Assembly (NCBI RefSeq): GCF_041146345.1
Contig: NW_027191413.1
Coordinates: forward strand, 868,001 to 932,000
DNA length: 64,000 bases
Source: Neodothiora populina
Lineage: Eukaryota
Direction of reading: 5' to 3'
Part shown: positions 54,503 through 59,446 of the stretch, piece by piece
How the letters are laid out: the number at the start of each line of letters is the position of its first letter
How positions within the stretch are numbered: position 1 is the first letter of the stretch
Position numbers and translations under genes: made by a program
The notes under the pieces: generated by a model
Databases searched by the model: none
What the model was told of the DNA's origin: nothing
The model's input: the letters and a program-made list of their open reading frames with translations, nothing else

Positions 54503-55061
54503 TTATTGAGCACTGCTTCAGGATAAGAAATGAGCGCCACGCCTCTGGTCATGGTCCTGTGTTTCTTTCATCATGTTCTTTTGACTCGCAATATTCTTCG
54601 AACCAATCTGTCATGCTTGATAGTTTCGAGTCTGTTGTGTGCGATGGCTCTTCAGTATGTCTTTGGTCACCATGTCCACCTCAGCTGTCCACCCAATCCT
54701 TCCACAAGGTCAGTCCTCCAAGTACATACTTGACGGAGCTTGCACTCGAGTCTTGTTTCACAAGCGGCATTGTGTAGGTACTCATCCCGACTTTGTTCTG
54801 CTCTTATGGCATAGCGTAGCGACACATGCTGGAAGTTGTCCTCGCAAAGGCCAGGTTCACAAAGACCACCTCGTGCGCGACTCGATGACCATAGCATCTT
54901 ATTGATACCCGTTTTGGTTTCTCACCCTGCTTGCTGGTAGGTTATTGACAGACGATCCAATTTTCTTATTCACGGTTCTTTTGTTTATTCAGTCATGACA
55001 AGGAGAAAGCCAGAAGTGTTGCGTTCTCTTTATACCACATGCCCTTATTGACACCCATTTT
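54503..55061 (+). promoter_or_regulatory. Array of TTATTGA motifs (candidate MAT1-1-1/alpha1 sites) upstream of the pheromone precursor
   Basis: TTATTGA at 54503, 54899, 54942 and 55045. Two copies lie in CTTATTGA(T/C)ACCC(G/A)TTTT. Confidence 0.6.
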
Positions 55062-55087
55062 CACACATATGATATTTCCCTCGGGTC

Positions 55088-55095
55088 TATAAAAA
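55088..55095 (+). promoter_or_regulatory. TATA box of the repeat-peptide precursor gene
   Basis: TATAAAAA 180 bp upstream of the ATG, followed by a pyrimidine tract and an A/C-rich leader (acaacATG). Confidence 0.65.
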
Positions 55096-55267
55096 GTGGC
55101 CTTGACCATGTAACTTTTCTCTCACTCACCTACAAGTCATTCCTTACGAGATTACACGGGGTTCATATCACAGATTTCTTCGAGATCCATTCGAACGCCT
55201 TTATCACCATCATCATCACAAAAACACCCAAGAAACCAAACCTAAAAATCAACCAAAAGACGACAAC

Positions 55268-55975
55268 ATGAAGTTCAACGCCGTAGTCTTCGGTACCGCC
55301 CTCCTGGCCTCTTCCGTCATGGCCATCCCGGCTGCATCTGCAGAGCCTGGCCTCGTCCGTGCCGGCAAGTTCGGCAACTGGTGTGTTGCACCCGGCCAGA
55401 TGTGCTACAAGACCAAGCGTGACCTCGACGACGCGAAGACCATCATCGCCGCCGGCTTCGAGGCACCGAACCAGCAAGAGATCGAGAAGCGTGGCCTCGT
55501 CCGCGCCGGTCGTTTCGGCAACTGGTGTGTCGCCCCTGGCCAGATGTGTTACAAGAGCAAGCGCGACTACGACGAAGCCATCACCGACATCGCCGCTGGC
55601 TACGATGCTCCCCACCCCGACGAGATCGAGAAGCGTTCTGCTTCCCCCGAACCTAAGAAGGGTGGCCTCGTGCGCGCCGGCCGCTTCGGCAACTGGTGTG
55701 TCGCCCCAGGCCAAATGTGCTACAAGAGCAAGCGCGACCTCGACGAAGTCACCGACGCCATACTCGCCGGCTTCGAGGCTCCCACCCCAGACGAGATCGA
55801 GAAGCGCTCTGCTTCCCCTGAGCCCAAGAAGGGTGGCCTTGTCCGCGCCGGCAAGTTCGGCAACTGGTGCGTCGCTCCCGGCCAAATGTGCTACAAGAGC
55901 AAGCGTGACCTCGAAGTCGCCAAGAGCCATGTTGCGGTTGGCGACTACGCCCCTCTTCCCGAGGACTTTGAGTAG
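55268..55975 (+). CDS. ppg1: Secreted Kex2-processed repeat protein; alpha-factor-type pheromone precursor with 4 peptide copies
   Basis: Signal peptide MKFNAVVFGTALLASSVMA. Four copies of GLVRAG(K/R)FGNWCVAPGQMCYK(T/S)KR start at 55349, 55493, 55664 and 55835. KR Kex2 sites and X-A/X-P dipeptide runs are present. WCxxxGQxC matches filamentous-ascomycete alpha-pheromones. Confidence 0.85.
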   Translation: MKFNAVVFGTALLASSVMAIPAASAEPGLVRAGKFGNWCVAPGQMCYKTKRDLDDAKTIIAAGFEAPNQQEIEKRGLVRAGRFGNWCVAPGQMCYKSKRDYDEAITDIAAGYDAPHPDEIEKRSASPEPKKGGLVRAGRFGNWCVAPGQMCYKSKRDLDEVTDAILAGFEAPTPDEIEKRSASPEPKKGGLVRAGKFGNWCVAPGQMCYKSKRDLEVAKSHVAVGDYAPLPEDFE

Positions 55976-58177: not shown

Positions 58178-59446
58178 ATGAAGGCTTCCATCCTTCTCTT
58201 GTCCCTCGCCGCTTCTGTGGCGCTTGCCGCAGAAGCCACTCCGACAGTCTCGGTCGAGGCCAGACAACTCTCGGATTTGCCCGATCTCAGCACGGCGACG
58301 AGAAAAACATCGAGCGCCGCTGCCTCAAGTACCGGATCCAGCGACTCTGCATCTGCCACCGACTCTGCATCTGCCACCGACTCTGCCTCGAGCAGCGACT
58401 CCGATTCTGCCTCGAGTACAGGCTCTGCTACCACAGCATCCGATGCCTCGAAAACCGCCTCAGATGCCTCGTCCACGACGGATGCCAATTCTTCCAAGTC
58501 GTCGGCAGCATCCAACTCAGCAACTTCTGTTGCGCATCTGTCCAACCTGCCCACCATCGCCGGTGCTTCCATTCCTACCGTCGTCGTTCCTTTCACCGCA
58601 AGCGCGCCCTACATGCAGAAATCCACATACCCCGAAGGAACCGTCTTCATCTGCATCGGCGCCGTTCTGGGCTTCCTGGGTCTGTGTGTGTTGGCATGGC
58701 GCGCCATCATCGCCTACACAATCAACAAGTCTGTCAAGCGTGCCGCCCTCGCCTCCATCATGGCCTCAGACGCCAAGACCCCCGCATGGCTGGCCGCTGG
58801 AATGTCTATGAAGAAGGGCCCTGGAGGCAAGATGTACAAGCAACCCACCGATGCCTCGGAACTCTCTCTCGAAGCCTTGACTGCCAACGGCAAGAAGGTC
58901 GGCTCTCACCGTCTGAGCGCCCTCCCGACGCGCAAGGAGCAGAAGCGCGATCCTTCCGGTCTCTTCTTCTCGCCCACCGCTGCTCCACCAATGTCAGGCC
59001 TCAGCGGCGGCGCAAACAACAGAGCATCCACCTACTTGCCCGCGGGCTACTACGCCTCGCCTTCGGCCCACCCCGCAGGCGGCGCATCAACGACCACTCT
59101 CGGAGCAGGGCTCAACACCCGTCCTTACTCACGCGTGTCACCACCAGAGTCACCCAACGCCCGTCCTCACAGCTCCTACAACCGCAACTCGGCCGCAAGG
59201 GACGAATCAAGGAACAGAGGGTCTTTCGTCGGCAACACGAATGCAAACCGCATGTCGGCGCCCCTGCTCACCCCGACCTACGGCCACGGCGCATCACAGC
59301 CGTTGTACAGCCAGCCCAGCACCAGCAGTCTCGCCGTCGGCTTCGGCGCCGGCGAGGAGAGCGACCTTCCGGGCCAAAGGGCTCCGAGCGCCTATTTCGA
59401 CGAGGTCCTGGACAACCATGGTCATGGTCCGAGGGAGCGCTACTGA
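58178..59446 (+). CDS. Type I membrane protein with Ser/Thr/Asp-rich ectodomain (Csi2-like)
   Basis: Signal peptide MKASILLLSLAASVALA; S/T/A/D-rich stalk with DSASAT repeats; PYMQKSTYPEGTVFICIGAVLGFLGLCVLAWR TM; cytoplasmic SGLFFSPT and RAPSAYFDE motifs. Confidence 0.7.
   Translation: MKASILLLSLAASVALAAEATPTVSVEARQLSDLPDLSTATRKTSSAAASSTGSSDSASATDSASATDSASSSDSDSASSTGSATTASDASKTASDASSTTDANSSKSSAASNSATSVAHLSNLPTIAGASIPTVVVPFTASAPYMQKSTYPEGTVFICIGAVLGFLGLCVLAWRAIIAYTINKSVKRAALASIMASDAKTPAWLAAGMSMKKGPGGKMYKQPTDASELSLEALTANGKKVGSHRLSALPTRKEQKRDPSGLFFSPTAAPPMSGLSGGANNRASTYLPAGYYASPSAHPAGGASTTTLGAGLNTRPYSRVSPPESPNARPHSSYNRNSAARDESRNRGSFVGNTNANRMSAPLLTPTYGHGASQPLYSQPSTSSLAVGFGAGEESDLPGQRAPSAYFDEVLDNHGHGPRERY

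Follow-up and report, generated by a model that had tools for sequence, protein, structure and literature searches.

The window analysed here, a 64,000-nt stretch of contig NW_027191413.1 from Neodothiora populina (positions 868,001 to 932,000), contains a gene that almost certainly encodes an ascomycete α-type pheromone precursor (Ppg1/PpgA), whose repeats carry a conserved basic arm ahead of the standard core. It is a long, basic-armed form of an ordinary precursor of this type, so its novelty is modest; in the article texts and the few supplements searched, no description of a GLVRAG-type peptide family was found.

Anatomy of the precursor

The gene is a genuine intronless ORF of 235 aa on the forward strand (55268-55975), assigned as a ppg1/ppgA orthologue by sequence and homology and flanked by two minus-strand genes, an isocitrate-dehydrogenase-family gene and FCF1. 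Its product begins with a putative signal peptide (aa 1-19; 55268-55324, +), recognized by inspection from its basic-hydrophobic-VxA make-up and aligning with the N-termini of the homologues. There follow four copies of the pattern GLVRAG[KR]FGNWCVAPGQMCYK[ST], starting at 55349, 55493, 55664 and 55835, with KR after every one of them (4/4), so that the four KR-followed repeats of the initial annotation were recovered in full by a pattern scan of the ORF; TRF scores the repeat array at 376 and 620. Copy 1 (55349-55414, +), a 22-mer predicted from the pattern and the cut rules, stands behind the Ste13-type run IP-AA-SA-EP (55325-55348, +; rule-based parse, as all runs here), and copy 2 (55493-55558, +), also a predicted 22-mer, abuts a KR directly and is the only one of the four without an X-A/X-P run ahead of it, both starts having been placed correctly by that annotation. 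Upstream of copies 3 and 4, in turn, stands KR-SA-SP-EP-KKG: by the cut rules, the runs SA-SP-EP (55637-55654 and 55808-55825, +) would leave a KKG leader on each peptide, yielding predicted 25-mers (55655-55729 and 55826-55900, +).

Whether the gene makes one product or two depends on the dibasic sites admitted. Bader et al. 2008 published a Kex2 matrix that accepts only Arg at P1 and only Lys or Arg at P2 (PMC2515848); applied to this precursor, it passes seven KR sites and fails KK and single Arg residues. The products by this strict rule are two 22-mers (three K/R and no D/E each, net +3) and two 25-mers (net +5). The single product of about 22 aa with three basic and no acidic residues proposed initially therefore describes copies 1 and 2 and not copies 3 and 4, since the latter carry KKG and KK is uncut by the matrix. 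Two annotation papers do count KK among the KEX1/2 sites and, if such a cut were allowed, copies 3 and 4 would yield 23-mers instead of 25-mers.

The copies are separated by acidic spacers of 22 residues (net -3 to -6), each followed by KR (55421-55486, 55565-55630 and 55736-55801, +; sequence and homologue alignment), and the C-terminal acidic piece (55907-55972, +) is homologous to them by the same alignment. In the seven homologues the spacers keep D-L-x-x-A-x3-[IV]-x-x-G-x-x-A-x-x-P, and cuts at the KR sites would excise them cleanly; going by the sequence, the gene might thus secrete the spacers as a further product. Elsewhere in the neighbourhood, an ORF at 58181-59446 (+) encodes a Ser/Thr-rich single-pass membrane protein with a signal peptide and no Pfam match, and holds an 18-nt repeat at 58338-58386.

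Identity of the gene

A direct homologue search returned seven proteins, the query included, out of 7216 candidates, and a profile built from the seven close sequences extended this to 77 representatives, mostly WCxxxGQxC two-Cys repeat precursors. Among the profile matches are proteins already named as pheromones, namely the Fusarium 'pheromone precursor 1' (P0013) and a 'Clock-controlled pheromone ccg-4' (P0014). When searched back against the genome, the Fusarium protein matches the ppg1 locus only (E 7.7e-14), and for the Meristemomyces precursor (P0082) the same locus is the sole match, a weak one (E 0.4). Genome-wide, the pattern W-C-x3-G-x2-C has 96 matches (control: 74), and these cluster only in the 235-aa ORF once simple repeats and a single pair on contig C15 are set aside; that pair lies opposite a 247-aa ORF and its own frame has no open stretch of 80 aa, on which grounds it was discarded. 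A looser core-plus-KR pattern was uninformative (283 matches, 273 for the control). The back-searches and the core-pattern scan hence revealed no other recognisable ppg1-like gene, a check that the initial annotation had advised. ESM Atlas provides leads only: two feature matches (0.87 and 0.86, one cluster being auto-named 'Pheromone 1') below the 0.9 bar, and structure matches with TM of at most 0.33. As a side observation, one clear pheromone-type repeat precursor (P0043/P0088) is labelled 'ABC-type molybdate transport system substrate-binding protein', likely a misannotation.

Of the partners that such a gene needs, the genome has one Ste2, one Kex2-type gene and one DPPIV-type (Ste13-type) peptidase gene. 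The first exon of the Ste2 is 100% identical to a protein named as that of Neodothiora populina, which, together with the Delphinella strobiligena homologue of the precursor, puts the gene in a Dothideales fungus. It also has MAT1-1-1 near APN2, about 8 kb apart on contig C15 (L006 7267-8619 and L007 4689-6892), and no MAT1-2 HMG gene was seen in the 20 kb around MAT1-1-1, a combination that fits a heterothallic MAT1-1 strain.

Upstream region

In Aspergillus and Penicillium the MAT1-1-1 site is described as (T/C)(T/C)ATTGA(G/T/C), and ppgA has TTATTGAG at -315 (PMC8022922). Four sites of the form TTATTGA[GTC] lie within 1 kb upstream of the ORF, all found as forward-strand motif matches: TTATTGAG at -765 (54503-54510), the same octamer as in ppgA (PMC8022922); TTATTGAT at -369 (54899-54906) and TTATTGAC at -326 (54942-54949), which form a close tandem pair; and a proximal one at -223 (55045-55052). 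The last lies inside a 22-nt footprint (55043-55064, +) that is identical at 21 of 22 positions in the alignment with a homologous locus on a 1524-nt contig (L004). The same alignment pairs a TATA-like element (55088-55093, +) with a TATAA of L004, and a further conserved block (55117-55150, +; 31 of 35 columns; score 46, against a maximum of 30 in 1000 shuffles) probably lies near the transcript start.

With YTATTGAB, a tighter pattern picked once the sites had been seen, 54 of the 63 1-kb bins of the window have no site, eight have one, and the bin upstream of ppg1 has four. Four sites appeared in 1/5000 shuffles for this pattern and in 8/5000 for the published looser consensus; the L004 promoter, in turn, has three sites in 556 nt (0/5000 shuffles). 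Close tandem pairs of the motif number three genome-wide, against two for the reversed control, with no mating gene evident beside the other two pairs. This cluster of MAT1-1-1-type sites points to a promoter under mating-type control, with the qualification that the consensus comes from Eurotiales and that binding in this Dothideales host is a prediction.

The N-terminal arm and the mature peptide

In all 23 copies from the seven close sequences the Trp is preceded by at least eight residues, counted from the last predicted cut, and the predicted products, with signal cleavage placed by eye after residue 19, measure 20-26 aa, ten of them being 22-mers. The arm positions L, R, A, G, F and G are 86-100% conserved in these sequences, and the Ste13 runs, varied as they are in sequence and length, end in phase where the arm or its basic leader starts. 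Among the four copies of the window, synonymous and non-synonymous codon differences are 13/4 in the arm, 23/0 in the core and 20/69 in the spacers, counts that overstate the sample size given that repeat copies are not independent; the tree of the 23 repeat units is mostly unresolved. Because the extension is conserved in 23 copies and the Ste13 runs stop at its start, it probably belongs to the secreted mature peptide, and we hold the long mature form to be quite likely from the sequence. The inclusion of the 10-aa extension in the mature product, as first annotated, is thereby favoured, with the reservation that a single-Arg cut within it is possible.

That reservation comes from copy 2 of the Delphinella-type precursor P0006, in which a true KR replaces LxR and the predicted product loses those residues, suggesting that the lone Arg of the other copies may conceal a cut site as well. 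The gene would then still be ppg1, but its active pheromone would be shorter: a cut after the conserved single Arg of LxR would release an 18-mer, or extracellular trimming would leave anything from a 15-mer down to the 10-12-residue core, and the removed part of the arm would be a pro-piece or a protease handle. Peptidomics of other KEPs has revealed cleavage after single Arg followed by further trimming (PMC9769878), canonical short peptides devoid of the K-x tail activate their receptors, and in an Aspergillus nidulans precursor the accepted core is preceded by FKINR (both PMC6265332). Nonetheless, VR and LR score 0 in the published Kex2 matrix (PMC2515848); three of the seven homologues have Asn at the second basic position, which leaves no conserved cut site there; the A, G, F and G/N between Arg and Trp are 86-100% conserved; and the Ste13 runs stop in phase where the arm begins. 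We consider the shorter form unlikely on this balance.

At the other end of the peptide, the proposal that Kex1 trimming would stop at S/T and leave a K-[ST] tail was weakened. Fusarium, Aspergillus and Trichoderma precursors also carry a K-x-KR tail, which the published peptides omit (PMC6265332), and a Cryphonectria precursor has some copies with the K-x tail and some without. Kex2 favours Lys at P4 (PMC2515848), a preference that may explain why the tail is there. Similarly, the peptide had been described as disulphide-looped, and the two Cys residues are in place, but the disulphide may not be the active form, given that the oxidised Fusarium oxysporum pheromone was reported to be inactive (PMC7289986).

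The receptor and other readings of the arm

Two further readings give the basic arm a function beyond the long ligand favoured above. In the first, the Dothideales would have a two-domain pheromone, its 22- or 25-residue forms using the basic arm as an 'address', with a Ste2 that gained a Cys pair in its second extracellular loop and with a Ste2-independent membrane activity. We regard this reading as improbable. The extracellular parts of the Ste2 have a net charge of -1, tied for the least acidic of the 35 aligned receptors (60 were found); they therefore do not complement the basic arm in charge, which speaks against the favoured scheme of a basic-armed ligand. The loop-2 Cys pair (C-x6/8-C) is an observation in its own right: it lies at residues 186-201 of the Ste2 (P0093; L002, C13:1225470-1229234) and occurs in 12 of the 35 aligned receptors, including those of its own clade and Aureobasidium, not in those of Elsinoe or the named non-Dothideales receptors. 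Judging from the sequence, it may form a lineage-specific disulphide. If the two-domain reading were true, Dothideomycetidae pheromones in general would have cationic arms, a feature so far undescribed and lost under the 9-15-residue annotation rule.

In the second, selection would have favoured the arm because it acts on the membranes of competitors or controls growth independently of Ste2, with the acidic spacers shielding it in transit. The charges agree with it, since the peptides have net +3 to +5 and the spacers -3 to -6, and Lys and Arg, a swap of 2-3 base changes, alternate while the position stays basic throughout the gene; moreover, the Fusarium pheromone, with its 10 residues, is reported to bind anionic vesicles and to inhibit growth in the absence of Ste2 (PMC7289986). 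However, that precedent needs no extension, the length of the basic leader varies freely between copies, the promoter points to mating-type control, and the hydrophobic moment of the arm does not exceed that of shuffles (p ~0.3 at 100 degrees and 0.8 at 160). The second, membrane-active role suggested initially thus found no backing in arm amphipathicity or in a more acidic outer face of the receptor, and it appears decidedly improbable.

It is extremely unlikely that the gene is a non-pheromone KEP (a dikaritin-type precursor, a knottin-like toxin or a carrier of the acidic spacer as the real product), because although Pfam Cys_Knot_tox (PF17486) reaches 31.2 over the whole protein (cut-off 27) and the spacer pattern DLxxAxxxIxxG[YF]xAP is kept in seven homologues, that score is a sum over repeats with two Cys per unit, no single stretch passing the cut-off, and a six-Cys knot is discarded with it, none of the eight UstYa/DUF3328 matches of the genome lies on the ppg1 contig C6, which likewise discards a dikaritin RiPP precursor, no other ppg1 candidate was found in the genome, and the upstream MAT1-1-1-type sites are conserved. 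Regarding those eight matches, one (C13:1246964-1247500) is about 20 kb from Ste2 and the other seven are on C4, suggesting dikaritin-type clusters.

Proposed mechanism and significance

From this anatomy we infer the processing, the mature ends, the receptor activation and the role of the arm, in a scheme that, taken as a whole, is moderately likely: a single ppg1/ppgA gene driven by MAT1-1-1 and releasing long, basic-armed Ste2 ligands. MAT1-1-1 would turn the gene on through the TTATTGA site cluster, and the precursor would enter the secretory path, where, if processing follows that of the yeast enzymes, Kex2 would cleave after the seven KR sites, Kex1 would strip the terminal KR, and Ste13 would strip X-A/X-P pairs until reaching a pair that it could not cut. 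Two 22-mers and two 25-mers would be released, each with LxRAG[KR]F[GN]N as its basic arm at the N-terminus, ahead of a standard WCxxPGQxCY turn core, and would activate the Ste2 of the opposite mating type. The arm, which would elaborate an aromatic-x-G/N-W/F-C extension common to Zymoseptoria- and Baudoinia-type pheromones, would most likely give species specificity and retain the peptide close to the cell surface, which is anionic.

The gene leaves the understanding of fungal mating unchanged. It does name an α-pheromone for a Dothideales lineage whose one named homologue is 'hypothetical', and supplies exact peptide masses and a cognate receptor as testable items. The monoisotopic masses calculated for the disulphide forms are 2383.14 and 2397.13 for the 22-mers, 2710.34 and 2682.34 for the 25-mers and 1154.44 for the 10-residue core, the reduced forms being heavier by 2.016. 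Furthermore, published annotation practice counts back 9-15 residues from the cut site (PMC10569646, PMC13037118) and would omit the conserved arm; should activity depend on the arm, synthetic pheromones made for this Dothideales group would have to carry it.

Comparison with known pheromones

Canonical Ppg1/PpgA/Ccg-4 precursors (Fusarium, Neurospora, Aspergillus) share with this one the WCxxxGQxC core with its PG/GQ turn, the KR and Ste13 sites, the K-x-KR tail and the MAT1-1-1-type promoter sites. They differ in that their peptides begin at or beside the Trp and measure 9-14 aa by convention, the annotation papers setting mature length at 9-14 or 9-15 residues (PMC10569646, PMC13037118), and in lacking the regular 22-aa acidic spacer units found here. 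With rule-based products of 22 and 25 aa, the peptide was not assigned to that short (9-14 aa) Pezizomycotina subtype. Length is nonetheless no criterion for α-type ligands, since three Schizosaccharomyces 23-mers activate their Ste2-type receptors (PMC6265332). The P-factor of that genus is alike in being a KEP-derived 23-mer that activates a Ste2-type receptor, and differs in its unrelated sequence, which has no Cys pair and is not strongly cationic.

Closer parallels come from the Dothideomycetes, in 13 of which Le Marquer et al. recorded two-Cys pheromones (PMC6339444). Zymoseptoria tritici (Mycosphaerella graminicola; P0163) has the same layout, in which a Ste13 run and then a basic cluster precede an extended two-Cys peptide followed by K-x-KR, with an aromatic residue four positions before the first Cys. 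Its basic cluster contains an RR and is cut off, resulting in 16-18 aa, whereas the arm here has no dibasic Arg site and the products have 22-25 aa; the core reads GAPC there and GQMC here. Billerbeck et al. 2018 list a 16-mer for Zymoseptoria and, for Baudoinia, a 13-mer active on its own Ste2 with a log EC50 of -6.7 (PMC6265332), the Zymoseptoria pair being missing from the dose-response table (PMC6265332). Baudoinia compniacensis is likewise a Dothideomycete with a two-Cys peptide extended ahead of the first Cys, by 5 residues vs 11-14 here. The only close homologue with a named source is the Delphinella strobiligena protein KAF1355069.1 (P0009), from the P0006 cluster, with 62% identity and the same core and tail; it differs in having two copies, with a predicted 24-mer and 20-mer, and in being annotated as a 'hypothetical protein'.

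Beyond these cases, 72 of 73 more distant precursors from the profile search could be parsed. Of these, 26 have a shortest stretch before the first Cys of just one residue, 13 of at least seven and nine of at least nine, lengths that are partly over-counted where a single Arg is a cut; the close family has 9-15. Some precursors of the Zymoseptoria/Baudoinia type (P0074, P0160, P0018 and P0153) bear His/Lys-rich tracts ahead of some copies. The view that the N. populina peptide is unusual for being about twice the usual length did not survive this comparison, as 23-mers and a 16-mer are published and other Zymoseptoria-type precursors give 20-22-mers by the same rules. Cationic predicted products of 20-24 residues recur in Meristemomyces, Phyllosticta, P0153, P0156 and P0159, so that the Dothideales family stands among the longest in a trend that extends well beyond it and is no isolated case.
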